DNA of 64,000 bases from Candidatus Levybacteria bacterium RIFCSPHIGHO2_01_FULL_36_15b. GTDB taxonomy: Bacteria > Patescibacteriota > Microgenomatia > Levybacterales > UBA12049. The translations under genes and the position numbers were made by a program. The DNA is taken from positions 7,516-71,515 of the forward strand of contig MFNK01000009.1 of the NCBI GenBank assembly GCA_001782045.1. Reading direction: 5' to 3'. Below, in pieces: positions 14,273-58,693 of this stretch (its first letter is position 1; every line of letters begins with the position of its first letter). Below the pieces are notes generated by a model. The model did not search any database. It saw only the letters and a program-made list of their open reading frames with translations, and was not told the origin of the DNA.

Positions 14273-16635
14273 GAATATTAGCCAAATTTTACCATTGGTA
14301 TACTAATTTATTAACAGAAGTAACAAGAATTTTACTCTTTATTCTTCTTATAGGCTTAGTCGTTTTAAGTTATGTATATAAAATTTACCCGAATATTTTT
14401 ATTACTCTATTTGGGTTATTTATTATGTTTGAAGTCTATTTTTACCAGAAAATTGTAAAACATACTCCAAAGACTACAGTTTCCAACAATACGGGAAGTA
14501 TTTTTGATTCTTTTATAATTGAATCTTTATCTGCCTTTGAGGCAAGTAACAGTTCTGAGCAGATAATTAGATATTTAGTTAAACTTCCTCAAATTAAATT
14601 TATTATTTCTAAGTGTTGCTCCAGTAATAAAAATGTTCCAATTATTCCGGTAGAAAAAGAGGAGTTGGCAAAATCCGCGTTTGAGCTTGCCAAGGTTTTA
14701 AACGCAAAATTTGTTACCACCATAGATATTTTTGGAGCATATTTGAAGCTAATTGAACCTAAAACAAAGTTTTTGTTTAACGAAAAACTAAAACAAGAAG
14801 ATCTGAATAATATTTTGCTTTGGGCATCAAATAATTTCGCAGGAGAAGAAGTAGATAAAAAGGCTCAAATCTCATTTGCAGGGGAAGGTATTGCAGAAGA
14901 CTGGATTTATGGTTGGACACTAGAGACTAAAAAGTACACGGTTGATTTGACAAAAGAATATGTAAATCAAGATGAGCCGGTAGTTAGATTAAACGAATAT
15001 AACCAGTTGACGGAAGCTTTGTATAAGGGATCAAGTGTTGTGTTAGTAGGGGATGTTGGAGCTGGCAAGGATTCAATAGTTAGATTCTTTGCAGTAGAGA
15101 GCTATATGGGAAGATTGTCGGGAAATTTATATCACCAAAGGGTTTATAGACTTATGGTCGATGCTTTAATGGGAGGAGCAAGCCAGCAAGGAGAACTTGA
15201 AGAAAGACTTAACTTAACCATGCAGGAGCTGACTCACAGTGGCAATGTAATAATTTATATTCCTGAATTTCAAAACCTATTGGGAGCACAGTCTTTTAAT
15301 TTAGATATTTCGGGGGCAATTTTGCCTTATCTGCAAAACAAAAATGTTAGAATCATAGCATCCGTTACTCCGAGTGCTTATAAAAAATATGTTGAGCCCA
15401 ATAAGACGCTTCTAGATACTTTAGAGATTATAAATTTCCCGCAAATAACACACGAAGAAATGCTCGATATTCTTTTTGCAAAAGTTTCTGAAATTGAAAT
15501 TCTAAATAACGTCTCATTTTCTTACCGAGCAGTTTTAACAGCAGCTAGATATTCAAAAAATTACTCTAATGAAAGAGTAGAGCCAGGGAGTGCCGTAGTA
15601 TTGCTTGAAGACAGTGCAAATTCGGTTCATATATCCGGAAAACAAATAGTTGAGGAGGAAGATATTCTTTCTCAAGTGAAGAAAAAAGTACATGTTGAAG
15701 TTGGAGAACCAAAGCCAGTTGAGAAGAAGCTCTTATTAAATTTGGAAAATGAAATTCACAAAAGAATTATAAATCAAGCGGAGGCTGTTTCGGCAATTTC
15801 GGAGGCTATTAGAAGATTAAGATCCGGTTTAAAAACCCCTACCAAGCCAATATCATTTCTCTTTTTAGGCCCAACTGGAGTTGGAAAGACAGAAACCGCA
15901 AAAGCTCTTGCAGAGATTTATTTCGAGGGAAAAGAAAGACTAATTAGACTTGATATGAGCGAATTTTCTGGTGTTGATGGAGAGAAAAGACTTTTGGGGG
16001 CACCACCAGGCGAGGGAGACGAAAAAGGACAGCTAACGGAAGCAATTTATGATAGTCCTTACTCACTAGTTTTACTCGATGAATTTGAAAAAGCAGATCA
16101 AACCATTCTGGATTTATTTTTACAAGTATTCGATGACGGAAGACTCACCGATAATAAGGGAAAAACCGTTTCTTTTGCAAATTCAATCATTATTTCAACT
16201 TCAAATGCTGCTTCAGAATTCATCCGAGAACAGATAGCAATGGGGGTAATAGTCGATAAAAATTTTAAGACAAAACTTATTGAATTTCTCGAAACTAAAG
16301 GTGTATTTAAGCCTGAACTATTAAATAGATTTGATGATATTATTGTTTTTAAACCACTTGGAAACCCTGAAATTATACAAATTGTAAAATTGCTTCTTAC
16401 AGATGTTACTAAAAACTTAAAAGAAAAAGATATAAATGTAATGTTTGAAGAACCCGTTATTGAAAAAATAGCAACCGAGGGATTTGATCGGGATTTTGGC
16501 GCAAGGCCACTTAAAAGATACATTCAGGATAATATCGAAGACCTAATCGCCCAAAAAATGTTAAAAGACGAAATAAAAAGAGGAGACAAAATAGTAGTTT
16601 CAGTAAGTCCTGAAGGAAAAATAGTCATAGGTTGA
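14269..16635 (+). CDS. membrane-anchored Clp/Hsp100-type double AAA+ ATPase (ClpC-like) with degenerate D1 and intact D2
   Basis: N-terminal TM helices, then a degenerate Clp_N-like segment (VTTIDIFGAYLKLIE). D1 has Walker A GDVGAGKDS and Walker B IIYIPEF, both non-canonical. D2 has GPTGVGKTETAKALA, LVLLDEFEKA, sensor-2 GARPLKRYIQ. Confidence 0.7.
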   Translation: MRILAKFYHWYTNLLTEVTRILLFILLIGLVVLSYVYKIYPNIFITLFGLFIMFEVYFYQKIVKHTPKTTVSNNTGSIFDSFIIESLSAFEASNSSEQIIRYLVKLPQIKFIISKCCSSNKNVPIIPVEKEELAKSAFELAKVLNAKFVTTIDIFGAYLKLIEPKTKFLFNEKLKQEDLNNILLWASNNFAGEEVDKKAQISFAGEGIAEDWIYGWTLETKKYTVDLTKEYVNQDEPVVRLNEYNQLTEALYKGSSVVLVGDVGAGKDSIVRFFAVESYMGRLSGNLYHQRVYRLMVDALMGGASQQGELEERLNLTMQELTHSGNVIIYIPEFQNLLGAQSFNLDISGAILPYLQNKNVRIIASVTPSAYKKYVEPNKTLLDTLEIINFPQITHEEMLDILFAKVSEIEILNNVSFSYRAVLTAARYSKNYSNERVEPGSAVVLLEDSANSVHISGKQIVEEEDILSQVKKKVHVEVGEPKPVEKKLLLNLENEIHKRIINQAEAVSAISEAIRRLRSGLKTPTKPISFLFLGPTGVGKTETAKALAEIYFEGKERLIRLDMSEFSGVDGEKRLLGAPPGEGDEKGQLTEAIYDSPYSLVLLDEFEKADQTILDLFLQVFDDGRLTDNKGKTVSFANSIIISTSNAASEFIREQIAMGVIVDKNFKTKLIEFLETKGVFKPELLNRFDDIIVFKPLGNPEIIQIVKLLLTDVTKNLKEKDINVMFEEPVIEKIATEGFDRDFGARPLKRYIQDNIEDLIAQKMLKDEIKRGDKIVVSVSPEGKIVIG

Positions 16636-55040: not shown

Positions 55041-55053
55041 TCCAAAAGTCTGC

Positions 55054-55071
55054 CCTGCCTGCGCAGGCAGG
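55054..55071 (+). repeat. 18-bp perfect GC-rich palindrome CCTGCCTGCGCAGGCAGG just downstream of tuf (terminator-like but without a clean U-tract)
   Basis: Arms 55054-55062 and 55063-55071. Strongly GC-rich in an AT-rich genome. Confidence 0.5.
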
Positions 55072-55101
55072 CTCATTTAGCTCTTTGATTTAAATACACA
55101 T

Positions 55102-55410
55102 ATGCCAAAAGGAAGAATTAGAGTAAAACTCAAAAGTTACGACGCGAGAGTAATAGACTCTACATGTCAGCAAATTTTAGACACGGCAATTAGAACCGGG
55201 GCTAAAGTTGTTGGGCCAATTCCACTTCCCAGCAAAAGATCGGTATATGCGGTAAATAAATCAACTTTTATAGACAAAAACGCACGAGACCACTTTCAAA
55301 TAAAAATCCACAAAAGACTCATAGATATAATCTCACCCACAGAAAAAACAATTGACAGTCTTACGCATTTAGAATTACCTGCTGGAGTGAATATTGAGAT
55401 AAGGATGTAG
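55102..55410 (+). CDS. rpsJ: 30S ribosomal protein S10
   Basis: 102 aa. S10 signature (RIRVKLKSYD..LD.S...I..TA...GAKVVGPIPLP). Confidence 0.9.
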   Translation: MPKGRIRVKLKSYDARVIDSTCQQILDTAIRTGAKVVGPIPLPSKRSVYAVNKSTFIDKNARDHFQIKIHKRLIDIISPTEKTIDSLTHLELPAGVNIEIRM

Positions 55411-55422
55411 TATAATTCGTTT

Positions 55423-55830
55423 ATGGATACACCAGCAAATCCAAATCAACCTCCACAAGATCCCTTTAACTTAGCCCGACAGATATCTACTGATCCCGCA
55501 GTTCCAGACGAGCAGAAATTGGAAATGTTAACGGAAATTGGCAGAGGTGTTGGCGTTGATGTAGATAGAATAAATAGATTGCAACGTGTTCCAATTATAC
55601 AACGTGCGGAAATAATAGCAGGACATATTGCTCGACATGGAGAAACTGTTAGGCAGATTACCGATTTTCAAACGGAAGCAAAAAGTCAATTACGCGAAGC
55701 AGATTCACAGCTGGCTAAATCGACGGCGGAAATAGCAGCTAGACTGGATGAGCTAAGAAGATTCCATGAGCCAAGAATAGCAGAAGCAGACATAGCCGTA
55801 CGCCGTCCCAAAAACACCCCTGAAAAATAA
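55423..55830 (+). CDS. hypothetical protein (alpha-helical; Pro-rich N-terminus PANPNQPPQDP), inserted directly after rpsJ
   Basis: 135 aa. Higher GC and R/Q/D-rich composition unlike neighbours. Preceded by tagTATAAT. Confidence 0.45.
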   Translation: MDTPANPNQPPQDPFNLARQISTDPAVPDEQKLEMLTEIGRGVGVDVDRINRLQRVPIIQRAEIIAGHIARHGETVRQITDFQTEAKSQLREADSQLAKSTAEIAARLDELRRFHEPRIAEADIAVRRPKNTPEK

Positions 55831-55863
55831 CCTGCAGGCGTAAACATCGAAATCAGGATGTAG
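55831..55863 (+). pseudogene. orphan duplicate of the rpsJ 3' end (10 codons + stop, PAGVNIEIRM*), synonymously recoded
   Basis: cct gca ggc gta aac atc gaa atc agg atg tag versus the rpsJ end cct gct gga gtg aat att gag ata agg atg tag (55378-55410). Seven differences, all third-position synonymous. Identical aggatgtag core. Confidence 0.6.
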
Positions 55864-55865
55864 AA

Positions 55866-55893
55866 TTGACTTGTATCTCTTTAATGCTATAAT
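55866..55893 (+). promoter_or_regulatory. candidate sigma-70 promoter TTGACT-N16-TATAAT
   Basis: -35 at 55866-55871, -10 at 55888-55893, upstream of the second inserted ORF. Confidence 0.45.
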
Positions 55894-56006
55894 TTCTATA
55901 TGGAACCTGTTGATAGTCAAGAAATCGCTGCTAATTCTCTAGAGCAAAGCATTATTCTCCAGACCACGTTTTTAAAAGAGAAGAGCTTCAGAACGAATCA
56001 GAAAGC

Positions 56007-56432
56007 TTGTTCTCTAGTTTTCTAGATGTATTTAAGCAAGACCCTGATGTTCTAGAAGCCACAGCAGATTCCTTCTTTGATTATGGTGGGTCTCACGATT
56101 TTATAGAAATACCTAAAAGTAATTCTGAATATGAAATATCTACAGCTGATGATCCATATAATGGGGCTGTATATAGATTAGATATTGTTAGAAGAGAGGG
56201 AGAGGTTGAAGAACATCTAATTCTTAAAAGCGCACCCGAGAGGTTTAGAGGAAGCACCATAGTTATGGAAGGAGTGGGGTTTATATATCAATACCGAAAT
56301 GAGGAGACGCAAGGGTATCGTCCATACTCAAATTCACCAATAGCTTTGGATGCTGCTCGAACTCTTTTAGAAAAAACAAAAAGAGATTTTCAAGATGCAC
56401 CCCAACCAAATCCGGCCAATCCTCAGACTTAA
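56007..56432 (+). CDS. hypothetical protein (TTG start; C-terminus ends in the Pro-rich APQPNPANPQT)
   Basis: 141 aa, no recognised domain. Atypical composition (R/E/Y/G). Weak SD. Confidence 0.4.
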   Translation: MFSSFLDVFKQDPDVLEATADSFFDYGGSHDFIEIPKSNSEYEISTADDPYNGAVYRLDIVRREGEVEEHLILKSAPERFRGSTIVMEGVGFIYQYRNEETQGYRPYSNSPIALDAARTLLEKTKRDFQDAPQPNPANPQT

Positions 56433-56601
56433 ACGCTCCCATTAAGAATCCACAGGTTAAAATTCAAACGCGAAAACCTATCAGCCTCCTCTTGCAATTG
56501 ACCTCATCAATATATATAATTACAAGTACAAAATGGCTAAAACACAGGAGGTGATGTTAGCTACATAGGAGTAAATTCGCTACTTTTTTTGTAAGTAAAA
56601 G

Positions 56602-56630
56602 CGGCTCTATGTGGCCGCCTTTTTGTTGTT
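56602..56630 (+). terminator. terminator/attenuator-like hairpin (GCGGC-n8-GCCGC + T-rich run) 10 nt upstream of the rplC SD
   Basis: Stem 56602-56606 / 56615-56619, then ctttttgttgttt. Preceded by a candidate promoter TTGCAA-N16-TATAAT (56493-56520) and an 11-codon mini-ORF (MAKTQEVMLAT). Confidence 0.4.
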
Positions 56631-56640
56631 TAGGAGAATT

Positions 56641-57579
56641 ATGCAAATTTTATCTTTAGTAGGAAGAAAAGTCAGTCAAAAACAAGGATTTTTGCAGAAC
56701 GGTAAAAGAGTTCCGTTAACTGCAGTAAATGTGATGGGTAACATGGTAACTCAGCTTAAGACAGCCGACAAAGAAGGCTACACTGCAATTCAGCTAGGTA
56801 TGGATATTAAGAAAAAACCAGGCAAAAGAGACCTGAATAGAGCAAAACAAGCGGGGCTAGAAAAAGCACCCCGCTTTTTTACAGAAATAAGAGTGGATGA
56901 TCTTGAAGGTGCAACCCTAGGCGCAGAATTAAAATTTGAGGAAGTTTTCGTTCCCGGAGATATTGTTGACGTAACAGGAACTTCAAAAGGAAAAGGATTT
57001 GCAGGAGGAGTAAAAAGACACGGATTCCACGGAGGACCTAGAACCCATGGACAATCAGACAGGGAAAGAGCGCCCGGCTCAATTGGTCAAACAACAACAC
57101 CAGGAAGAGTTTATAAAGGTAAAAAAATGGCAGGAAGAATGGGAACAGATACGGTAACTGTTAAAAATTTAGAAATTATAGAAGTAACTGCAGACGGAGT
57201 TTTACTAATAAAAGGATTAGTTCCCGGACATTTAAACGGATATGTAACAATTAAAAAAGTTGGAGAAAATAAAAAATTTGAACCGTTATATAAGGAAGAA
57301 GTAAAAGAACCAATTTCAGAAAGCACCAGTGAAAGTTCAGAAAATCAGACAAGCGGAACCGACCTGTCGCATTCTTCGGATGACGCTCAGGCTGTTCAAC
57401 CTGAACAACAAAACCTAGAGTCACCTTCGCTAAATAACAGCTCGGCAACTGACTCTGAAGATATTAAAGTTAATACTGAGCCGGCTGTCAGTTCACCTCA
57501 GAATGAACAGGTCGATACCACTCCAAAGAAAAATAAAGAAGAAATTAAAGAGGAGGTAGCTGAAGATGCCAAGAGCTAA
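56641..57579 (+). CDS. rplC: 50S ribosomal protein L3 with ~100-aa Ser/Glu-rich C-terminal extension
   Basis: ATG 56641 after SD aggaga (the ORF track's 56611 start is over-extended). L3 core then a low-complexity acidic tail. Confidence 0.9.
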   Translation: MQILSLVGRKVSQKQGFLQNGKRVPLTAVNVMGNMVTQLKTADKEGYTAIQLGMDIKKKPGKRDLNRAKQAGLEKAPRFFTEIRVDDLEGATLGAELKFEEVFVPGDIVDVTGTSKGKGFAGGVKRHGFHGGPRTHGQSDRERAPGSIGQTTTPGRVYKGKKMAGRMGTDTVTVKNLEIIEVTADGVLLIKGLVPGHLNGYVTIKKVGENKKFEPLYKEEVKEPISESTSESSENQTSGTDLSHSSDDAQAVQPEQQNLESPSLNNSSATDSEDIKVNTEPAVSSPQNEQVDTTPKKNKEEIKEEVAEDAKS

Positions 57580-58315
57580 AGCTCAAGTTAAAAGCTCAAA
57601 GTCAAAAGTTATAAAGAAAGAAACATCAAAAGCTCCAAAAAAAGCGGTAAAAGAATTATCTAAGCAAACAGGATTAAAACTAAGTGTTTATTCTGCAACC
57701 GGAAGAGTTTTGGAAAGCATGAGTCTTCCTAAAGAAATTTTCGGAGTGGAAGAAAACAAAAGCTTACTTGCCCAGGCTGTAAGAGTTTATCTTGCAAATC
57801 AAAGAAGCGGAACTGCAAAGTCAAAAAGCAGGGGAGAAGTAAATATTTCTACAAGAAAAATTTACAGACAGAAAGGAACAGGCCGGGCAAGACATGGCGC
57901 TGCTTCAGCTCCTATTTTTGTTGGAGGAGGAGTTGCTTTTGGACCAAGGCCCCACGATTTTTCATTAAAACTTTCTAAAAATCTCAGAAGGAAAGCATTA
58001 TTTATGGCGCTTTCTTCAAAGCTTGCAGAAGGGGAAATAAAAATAGTTTCAGGATTTGAAAAACTGGAGCCTAAAACAAAAAACATGGCTCAAGCTTTTG
58101 CAAAAATAGAAAAAGAAGGAAAGAAAAGGAATTTATTATTGGTAACTCCGGATTCAACCGAAAAATACGTAAACGTAGTTAAAGCAGCAAGAAATATAAA
58201 AGGCGTAGAAATTATGCCCTCGAGTCTTTTAAATACATATCAGGTTCTTAAAGCAAAAGAATTATTATTCATGAAAGAAGCAATAAACACACTAAAGGAG
58301 AGCGCAGCAAAATGA
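57566..58315 (+). CDS. rplD: 50S ribosomal protein L4 (N-terminal basic extension)
   Basis: 249 aa; L4 core (GTGRARHG...). Confidence 0.9.
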   Translation: MPRAKAQVKSSKSKVIKKETSKAPKKAVKELSKQTGLKLSVYSATGRVLESMSLPKEIFGVEENKSLLAQAVRVYLANQRSGTAKSKSRGEVNISTRKIYRQKGTGRARHGAASAPIFVGGGVAFGPRPHDFSLKLSKNLRRKALFMALSSKLAEGEIKIVSGFEKLEPKTKNMAQAFAKIEKEGKKRNLLLVTPDSTEKYVNVVKAARNIKGVEIMPSSLLNTYQVLKAKELLFMKEAINTLKESAAK

Positions 58316-58395
58316 ATCCCGTTAGAAAAATGAGTTCAAAAAAGATATTTCCAGAAATAAGGCTTAATATTTTAAGGAGGGTTTTCTAACGGGAT
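58316..58395 (+). promoter_or_regulatory. second copy of the ATCCCGTTA...TAACGGGAT inverted-repeat element (14-bp perfect arms, 52-nt loop containing AAGGAGGG). Right arm ends on the AT of the rplW ATG
   Basis: Arms 58316-58329 (ATCCCGTTAGAAAA) and 58382-58395 (TTTTCTAACGGGAT). rplW ATG at 58394. Confidence 0.45.
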
Positions 58396-58693
58396 GAATG
58401 CATTAAATATTATTTTACAGCCCGTAATTTCTGAAAAATCATTAAATGATGTAGGTAAATCAAGATTTACATTTAAAGTGGCAAGGAATACAAACAAAAC
58501 TGAAATTAAAAAAGCAGTAGAGGAAAAATTTAAGGTAAATGTTTTAAAAGTTTCAACGATAAGCTTAGCGGGAAAAGAAAAACAAATACGAACAAGAACA
58601 AAAGTTGCAAAAGTAGCAAACAAGCCCTTTAAAAAGGCAGTCGTAACATTAAAAGAGGGACAAAAGATTGCAATTTTTGAGTCAGGAAAATAA
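58394..58693 (+). CDS. rplW: 50S ribosomal protein L23
   Basis: 99 aa, L23 fold pattern. Confidence 0.9.
   Translation: MNALNIILQPVISEKSLNDVGKSRFTFKVARNTNKTEIKKAVEEKFKVNVLKVSTISLAGKEKQIRTRTKVAKVANKPFKKAVVTLKEGQKIAIFESGK

Follow-up and report, generated by a model that had tools for sequence, protein, structure and literature searches.

Why should a spacer of 78 nt with a perfect hairpin separate rplD from rplW, the genes of ribosomal proteins L4 and L23, in the most conserved operon of a genome from the candidate phyla radiation (CPR)? The question is raised by a stretch of 64,000 nucleotides (below, the window) from Candidatus Levybacteria bacterium RIFCSPHIGHO2_01_FULL_36_15b (contig MFNK01000009.1, positions 7,516 to 71,515), where the spacer lies within the S10 operon and its hairpin takes in the start codon of rplW. 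The first-pass annotation of the window read the stem as a ribosomal-protein leader that gates L23 translation independently of the upstream genes, with a mobile origin as the fallback. The evidence presented here makes it very probable that the hairpin is mobile DNA, and the spacer can now be explained in these terms. In its complete form the explanation, which we regard as likely, is that a non-autonomous DNA transposon of 78 bp, a miniature inverted-repeat transposable element (MITE), has entered the overlap between the rplD stop and the rplW start, that it has regenerated the start codon, and that it belongs to a sub-type with an open reading frame (ORF) which relays translation.

An insertion in the overlap between rplD and rplW

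The left arm of the hairpin, ATCCCGTTAGAAAA (58316-58329), opens on the first base past the rplD stop codon TGA (58313-58315). Its exact reverse complement, TTTTCTAACGGGAT (58382-58395), closes on the T of the rplW ATG (58394-58396), with 52 nt in between. Arms, loop and their placement between the two genes are as first described, while the Shine-Dalgarno (SD) sequence AAGGAGGG, initially put at 58372-58379, is found two positions further on, at 58374-58381, its GGAGG ending 13 nt 5' of the rplW ATG. The predicted RNA fold of the region has an energy of -26.9 kcal/mol (z = -3.8). The inverted repeat is the sole perfect one of 14 bp with a loop of at most 200 nt in the 64-kb window, and block-shuffled windows contain at least one such repeat in 7% of the trials; judged alone, it is only moderately unlikely by chance. 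It is the evidence from other genomes that makes the hairpin a feature which is certainly real.

The arms were also said to occur in another copy of the element within the same stretch. This is not borne out: no second copy of either arm exists in the 64 kb when 14-mers with at most two mismatches, the 8-mer core with at most one mismatch or 9-mers with one mismatch are searched for, and the whole element, used as a blastn-short query against the window, finds no second copy either. The sole near match to an arm, at 14644, has two mismatches and is without a partner arm. An intrinsic terminator or attenuator, which calls for a G+C-rich stem with a U-tract after it, was considered and rejected: a scan for promoters and terminators gives no site at the element, and what follows the stem is GAATGCAT.

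Consider now the same junction in seven relatives (L011-L014, L194-L197), whose L4 is 65-81% identical to that of the window. They have no rplD-rplW spacer and no stem; their genes meet in ordinary overlapping or 1-nt junctions (-4, i.e., an ATGA overlap, -1 or +1 nt), which read AAATGAAT or TAATGAAT. The junction in the window reads AAATGAA[T CCCGTTAGAAAA … TTTTCTAACGGG A]TGAATGCA, where the outer brackets enclose the element, and it equals the sequence of the relatives with exactly 82 bp added. These 82 bp consist of the 78-bp element (58317-58394), with terminal inverted repeats of 13 nt, and a direct repeat of 4 bp, TGAA. The base A58316, originally counted with the left arm, is part of the duplication. 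Within the left TGAA the rplD stop codon survives, and so does the old start codon, which takes in the A before this TGAA. The present ATG of rplW is formed by A58394, with which the element ends, and the TG of the right TGAA. This regenerated ATG is the true start of rplW, since the N-terminal MNALNIIL of its product can be aligned with the MNVLNIIL and MNTLNIIF found in the relatives.

The 78-nt spacer is present in all ten places shown that encode an identical L23 (22 contigs read, in independent ENA, JGI and Logan assemblies), and is therefore not an assembly artefact. The window has a G+C content of 36%, and the L4 encoded in it shares 100% identity with the L4 of 'Candidatus Levybacteria bacterium RIFCSPLOWO2_01_FULL_36_13'.

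The element has four of the features that characterize a MITE: terminal inverted repeats, a target-site duplication, a small size without coding for a transposase, and empty orthologous sites. The only ORF in its 78 bp is the relay frame that is analysed below. At the DNA level, the proposed course of events is that the MITE inserted into the TGAA of the ancestral overlap …AAATGAAT…, whereby these 4 bp were duplicated, and that it did so by a cut-and-paste or copy reaction of what would be a DDE-type transposase acting in trans.

The empty sites also bear on the reading as an evolved cis-regulatory leader of rplW, in which the start codon is sequestered in the stem until a trans-acting factor, for instance a ribosomal protein, opens it, so that L23 is gated independently of L4. 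The stability of the stem, the inclusion of the AT of the ATG and the position of the SD in the loop all accord with such a leader, and an RNA stem near a ribosomal-protein start codon is what the element shares with the autoregulatory leaders of the S10 and other ribosomal-protein operons. Unlike these, it is not conserved at its position, being absent in seven of seven relatives examined, and Rfam has no match that overlaps the element (window region, E up to 10) or the elements at 18 loci with other sub-types (gathering thresholds).

A dispersed family with conserved termini

When the pattern CCCGTTAGAA-N(41-71)-TTCTAACGGG is searched for in one genome per species, at least 120 stretches match, and these hold at least 123 elements, while chance alone, by a rough estimate, would give about 20. 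With the sub-type scan described below, more than 170 copies of the family are found outside the window. Most of the copies listed are in Patescibacteria (CPR), i.e., in Saccharibacteria, Nomura-, Kaiser-, Yanofsky-, Doudna- and Levybacteria and others, and the remaining listed copies are in Planctomycetota/Pirellulales, Deltaproteobacteria, Nitrospirae, KSB1, WOR-3 and Gammaproteobacteria. Nine further matches are in viral contigs. In one group of phage contigs (L135, L136, L137, L140, L141) there recurs an inverted repeat of 91 nt whose 10-nt arms are the same but whose flanks are GA/TT, a doubtful member of the family.

From the empty sites, the duplication and the dispersed family follows support for the mobile origin that the first-pass annotation had held in reserve. 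It had reasoned that relatives without a stem, combined with absence of the repeat family elsewhere, would speak for a recent selfish insertion rather than for regulation; the relatives are indeed without the stem, but the family is widespread.

What defines the family is a pair of termini, Y-CCCGTTAGAA(R)…(Y)TTCTAACGGG-R (Y, pyrimidine; R, purine), together with a 4-bp duplication of the form T-N-N-A. The ends alone are conserved, and the interiors are highly variable. A Y always stands outside CCCG and an R outside CGGG, and these two bases are complementary to each other in 92% of the copies. Family-wide, the identity between the flanks, compared in register, is 0.53/0.79/0.69/0.69/0.74/0.41, to be compared with a background of about 0.25. 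Because the four adjoining positions match in 69-79% and the outer ones far less, this is the signature of a target-site duplication of 4 bp, biased towards T-N-N-A. In the window, the direct repeat can be extended to ATGAAT (58312-58317 and 58394-58399), but a duplication of 4 bp around Y…R tips was preferred to one of 6 bp around an element that begins and ends at CCCG, on account of the much poorer match of the outer positions; a T follows the right repeat in no more than 17 of the 43 sub-type copies, which also counts against the longer duplication.

Many family loci hold additional copies, 24-190 bp long, and several have three to seven of them. Frequently a near-copy of the right terminus (…CTAACGGGR) recurs in the interior, at a distance of 15-25 nt from the left end, as in L056 (6015-6090), L020 (2688-2756), L100, L117 and L123, and at some loci there are also very short versions, of 24-38 bp, with the hairpin only. 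The internal near-copies and the short hairpins suggest nested or abortive copies.

The positions of the copies relative to genes are far from random. In 42 of 122 copies (34%), an RTG start codon (ATG or GTG) that opens an ORF of 70 or more codons lies exactly at the junction, compared with 0.9% per side for random positions of the same loci, and in each case the start codon is composed of the terminal R of the element and the TG of the duplication. A long ORF ends at the junction in 33 of 122 copies, its stop being a TGA or TAA of the duplication or a TAG inside the left repeat. Then there are copies inside genes, defined by a frame that stays open over 60 codons or more to either side: 20 of 123 (16%), among them L104 4374-4445, L052 2536-2604, L041 1305-1367 and 17 further loci, in genes for glycyl-tRNA synthetase (GlyRS) and other housekeeping functions. 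Such a copy lengthens the protein by about 23-29 residues, which have the form …PVR…SNG…. Alignment with homologues verifies the in-frame inserts in GlyRS and two other proteins: GlyRS has a clean insert of 26 residues, IHPVRNN…RISNG, which is missing from three homologues, and a second protein has IHPVRSS…TSNG followed by a repeated IHP. Accordingly, the family persists chiefly at the boundaries of genes or in frame within them, where it is translated.

The length of the intragenic copies is a multiple of three in 19 cases out of 20, which argues against removal at the RNA level. Identical short repeats (TGAA, or ATGAAT) on both sides of a strong hairpin have a superficial likeness to translational bypass elements, and one may imagine that the insertion is excised like an intron or skipped by ribosomes that use the repeats as take-off and landing sites. 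A constraint to in-frame lengths is unexpected if the copies are excised or bypassed, and in the window both rplD and rplW are complete without any removal; we give this idea next to no credence.

Several known systems resemble the family in part. Bacterial MITEs that are co-transcribed with neighbouring genes are exemplified by the Correia elements of Neisseria, the pneumococcal RUP and the enterobacterial ERIC sequences. These share with the present elements a size below 200 bp, terminal inverted repeats, a short duplication, the lack of a transposase gene, copies at gene boundaries and hairpins in mRNA. The present family is set apart from their descriptions by its Y-CCCGTTAGAA termini, its 4-bp TNNA rather than TA duplication, its occurrence across phyla, its variable interiors, the start codon made from the last base of the element, and a sub-type with an SD and a selected frame. 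The Rickettsia palindromic elements are palindromic repeats tolerated in frame within genes, like the intragenic copies here; they differ in hosts and sequence, and the present family has clear 4-bp duplications. The copy in the window is itself not of the in-frame kind, since it is intergenic and the insertion of 82 nt is not a multiple of three.

As to the ends, insertion sequences of the IS1380 family have CC(C) tips and an A/T-rich duplication of 4-5 bp, and the end of the eukaryotic piggyBac is TTAA followed by CCCTAGAAAG. Both recall the present TNNA followed by Y-CCCGTTAGAAAG, a likeness of about 10 nt that is a lead only; the present elements have one more Y, placed between duplication and CCC, and no such transposase lies beside or between termini in the about 1.2 Mb of family loci. 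Integron attC sites, in which the core order is 5'-RYYYAAC … GTTRRRY-3', were rejected because the order in the element is the reverse on both strands (5'-GTTAGAA … TTCTAAC-3'). REP/REPIN sequences, which are mobilized by RAYT, have no target-site duplication and a conserved 5' GTAG or GTGG, and were rejected in view of the clear 4-bp duplications and the YCCCG termini.

The start-codon sub-type and its proposed relay frame

Three copies from the unbiased scan, all in Levybacteria (L050, L122, L124), share with the window the 76-nt core, the AAGGAGG and a right end of the form …AAGGAG(G/A)G(T/C)TTTCTAACGGG. Each of them sits on a start codon, and the site of L050 is again an ATGA overlap between stop and start. 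A metagenome scan for this right end followed by RTG collected 50 loci, of which 48 are followed by a real gene; topA, dnaG, rplM, rpmC, rplX, rplO, pth, adk, dut, secF and recR are among these downstream genes. The 43 unique copies all have a perfect 4-bp duplication (TGAA in 25, TGGA in 15, TGAG in 2 and TGTA in 1) and, as the search pattern partly dictates, all lie on a start codon. The tips are T…A in 42 of them and the length is exactly 78 nt in 38. In their alignment the 13-bp terminal stem is the sole conserved structure, with covariation of its innermost pair (position 13; A-U, in DNA A-T, in 23 copies and G-C in 10), and the interior is without conserved secondary structure.

A single contig (Ga0210057_1003167) has two copies, L156 and L192, that agree at 75 of 78 positions; one lies at the start of rpmC and the other at that of rplO, in the same ribosomal-protein cluster, and this is evidence of recent transposition within a single genome. 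Between copies at rplM and at rplW, from different organisms, 73 of 78 positions agree, whereas the four rplW copies are no more alike than the average. Such a pattern points to transposition and not to the inheritance of a site-specific leader. The leader reading is further countered by the genes that the same element precedes, which are dozens and unrelated (topA, dnaG, pth, adk, rplM, rplO and many others), so that nothing ties it to ribosomal proteins, and by an interior that lacks conserved structure and a relay ORF that connects the element to upstream translation. We consider a leader very improbable.

Three other lineages, too, have the 78-nt sub-type at their own rplD/rplW junction (L166 4757-4834, L169 558-635, L174 342-419); their L23 is 44-50% identical to that of the window, while the closest relatives of the window are without it. 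This distribution suggests that the junction has been struck repeatedly and independently by the sub-type.

We now turn to translation through the element. In 42 of the 43 sub-type copies the old ATG is kept to the left of the element, and in 40 of the 43 the frame that begins there is open through the element until the TAA in the right repeat (TTC TAA CGG G-ATG), which in these 40 lies 4 nt before the new start codon. When the interiors are shuffled, the mean number of open frames is 7.8 of 43 and the maximum in 1000 trials is 18. The interiors are A+T-rich (76%) with a median identity of 43%, and they contain 2 stop triplets in the relay frame versus 27-100 in each of the other five frames. 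The two copies of 81 nt stay in frame, and the two of 79 nt end at a TGA that overlaps the new ATG. The open frame from the displaced start to the stop in the right repeat is maintained by selection in the sub-type.

An upstream ORF ends at the old ATG in 22 of the 43 copies, and in 12 of these there is an ATGA overlap as in the window. At L148, L162, L167, L185, L193 and other loci with no upstream ORF, a box resembling an extended -10 element (TGnTAnAAT) lies 6-10 nt upstream of the old ATG; these boxes suggest leaderless genes that were hit at their start codon, in which case the relay ORF would begin at the 5' end of the transcript.

Could the frame be open because the 25-residue peptide (M-N/D-PVRK…RR-V/A-F) is itself functional? 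The 40 open copies out of 43 would fit a functional peptide. The conserved residues, though, are those from the terminal repeats and the SD only, the interiors, with about 43% DNA identity, encode peptides that are mutually unrelated, and the peptide has no Pfam match; this possibility is if anything a little more remote than that of a leader.

Preservation of the coupling of L23 to L4 is a different use of the frame. Termination-reinitiation coupling operates at ATGA and TAATG overlaps (PMC10666635, PMC6728339), and the ancestral rplD/rplW junction is such an overlap, of -4. Experiments with E. coli and Haloferax show that this coupling is almost lost when the spacer measures about 20 nt (PMC10666635). 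From this follows that an untranslated hairpin of 78 nt would uncouple L23 from L4, and it would bury the ATG as well. The element recreates two short junctions in series: the TGA of rplD overlaps the relay ATG, and the relay TAA lies 4 nt before the ATG of rplW. This arrangement is at odds with gating independent of the upstream genes, since the old ATG overlaps the rplD stop and its frame extends to within 4 nt of the rplW start.

To see how the relay would work, follow ribosomes which have finished L4 and re-initiate at ATGA, or which load directly at the old SD and ATG. They would translate the 25 codons of the relay ORF and thereby melt the 14-bp stem that otherwise buries the rplW start. 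Termination would follow at a distance of 4 nt from the rplW ATG, where the ribosomes would start again with the aid of the SD of the element. A further effect of translating the relay ORF might be to avert transcriptional polarity. In this way the translational coupling from L4 to L23 would be preserved across the insertion of 82 nt, and tolerance of the element would be due to the restored start codon, the SD that comes with it and the relay of translation. It would differ from ordinary coupling in that a 25-codon ORF from a mobile element serves as the bridge, and we know of no described case of this kind. We lean slightly towards this mechanism.

A stronger version holds that the insertion has been co-opted, i.e., that the hairpin makes L23 strictly dependent on ribosomes arriving from L4 or the relay ORF, more tightly than the ancestral ATGA did, and that it is maintained for this purpose. 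The stem does bury the new start, the relay frame is under selection, and the junction is occupied also in the lineages of L166, L169 and L174. The closest relatives, however, do without the element, its recurrence at rplD/rplW is equally well explained by an ATGNA target at the overlap junction, and site-specific conservation is lacking, as the rplW copies are no more alike than those at other genes. Nothing requires co-option as a stricter coupling device, and we find it unlikely.

A number of observations weigh against the transposon-and-relay explanation. No autonomous element or transposase with these termini is present in about 1.2 Mb of family loci: pairs of termini 0.4-4 kb apart with matching duplications amount to two, and both are separate small copies that share TGAA or TTCA; all-against-all clustering of 1757 ORFs from 120 loci returns only housekeeping families and no recurrent transposase-like ORF; and none of the ORFs beside solitary termini is transposase-like. 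The 64-kb window shows only one copy. Since the sub-type pattern required both an SD and RTG, the 100% association with start codons is partly by construction, and the copies free of this selection bias are only those of the window, L050, L122 and L124. The sub-type copies are related by descent, so that the shuffle test overstates their independence, though the divergence of the interiors is near saturation. The distance of 13 nt from the SD to the ATG is longer than the usual optimum. Finally, a relay-type ORF is seen in only 10 of the 27 start-codon copies in the wider family that retain the old start, and as a family-wide property it was rejected. So was the SD, which is recognizable in only 7 of 42 start-codon copies, in all of them at the end facing the gene (7 ends versus 0 opposite ends). 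Relay and SD thus belong to the sub-type and not to the family as a whole.

The 78-nt sub-type appears to be adapted to landing on start codons. One may go further and propose that tiny transposons distributed across phyla have given rise to a 'translation-transparent' sub-type, specialized for start codons through a rebuilt ATG or GTG, an SD and a selected relay ORF by which coupling is passed on; this generalization we hold to be as probable as its opposite. It may also allow for initiation on possibly leaderless transcripts in place of termination-reinitiation coupling. If it is true, a mobile element has been shaped by the translation-coupling rules of its hosts into a natural portable translational coupler.

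MITEs, palindromic in-frame inserts and ATGA coupling are already known. What we believe to be new is the family with its spread across phyla, the start codon rebuilt from the tip of the element, and the selected relay ORF in the SD-bearing sub-type; a literature search of incomplete coverage, which is no proof of novelty, found no description of the family. In practice, the signature YCCCGTTAGAA…TTCTAACGGGR with a 4-bp repeat can serve to flag insertions at gene starts, at gene ends and inside proteins of many uncultured phyla, which when unflagged resemble novel leaders, small ORFs or lineage-specific protein inserts. The insertion at rplW also shows that even streamlined genomes tolerate transposons in essential operons when stop codon, start codon and ribosome-binding site are restored. 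The strongly conserved open frame offers a testable natural example of translation relayed across an insertion, and the transposase that makes 4-bp TNNA duplications at CCC-tipped ends is worth finding.

Features of the locus and of the surrounding S10 region

The features at the rplD/rplW junction are collected in Table 1. With regard to the ancestral SD, the AAGGAG is found at the equivalent position before the rplW ATG in the element-free junctions of L011-L014.

Table 1. Features at the rplD/rplW junction, in window coordinates
Feature	Position	Strand	Basis or remark
rplD (ribosomal protein L4)	57566..58315	+	ORF list; Pfam Ribosomal_L4 on the identical gene in L001; homologues
Ancestral SD AAGGAG in the 3' end of rplD	58295..58300	+	11 nt before the old ATG (58312)
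Relay ORF, 25 codons, MNPVRKMSSKKIFPEIRLNILRRVF and stop	58312..58389	+	From the old rplW ATG to TAA (58387-58389)
Left target-site duplication TGAA	58313..58316	.	Empty sites of relatives read AAATGAAT; family flank identity
Inserted 78-bp non-autonomous element (MITE-like), T + 76-nt core + A	58317..58394	.	Absent in 7 relatives; family copies
Left terminal inverted repeat TCCCGTTAGAAAA, 13 nt	58317..58329	+	Consensus of termini
Element-borne SD AAGGAGG	58374..58380	+	Lies 13 nt 5' of the rplW ATG and 6 nt 5' of the stop of the relay ORF
Right terminal inverted repeat TTTTCTAACGGGA	58382..58394	+	Holds the relay-ORF stop TAA; last base A58394 is the A of the rplW ATG
Right target-site duplication TGAA	58395..58398	.	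Its TG completes the regenerated rplW ATG
rplW (ribosomal protein L23)	58394..58693	+	ORF list; homologue alignment

Elsewhere in the S10 region, about 1.2 kb (55411-56610) is wedged between rpsJ and rplC, with two ORFs (55423-55830 and 56007-56432) that have no Pfam match. After the first of them, at 55830-55862, comes a second copy of the last ten codons and the stop of rpsJ (PAGVNIEIRM and stop; 55378-55410 in rpsJ itself), which differs from the real one at third codon positions only. From its sequence, the duplicate looks like a relic of a foreign rpsJ 3' end that was carried in with an inserted cassette. The relative L012 has def and an ORF of 178 amino acids in the same place.

The L3 gene (56611-57579) encodes a C-terminal tail of about 100 residues that is of low complexity, acidic and rich in Ser, and its listed GTG start probably lies upstream of the true ATG (56641). 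L4 has a Lys-rich N-terminal extension (57566-57700). Between tuf and rpsJ there is a G+C-rich palindrome, CTGCCCTGCCTGCGCAGGCAGGC (55047-55073), which is unrelated in sequence to the 78-bp element.

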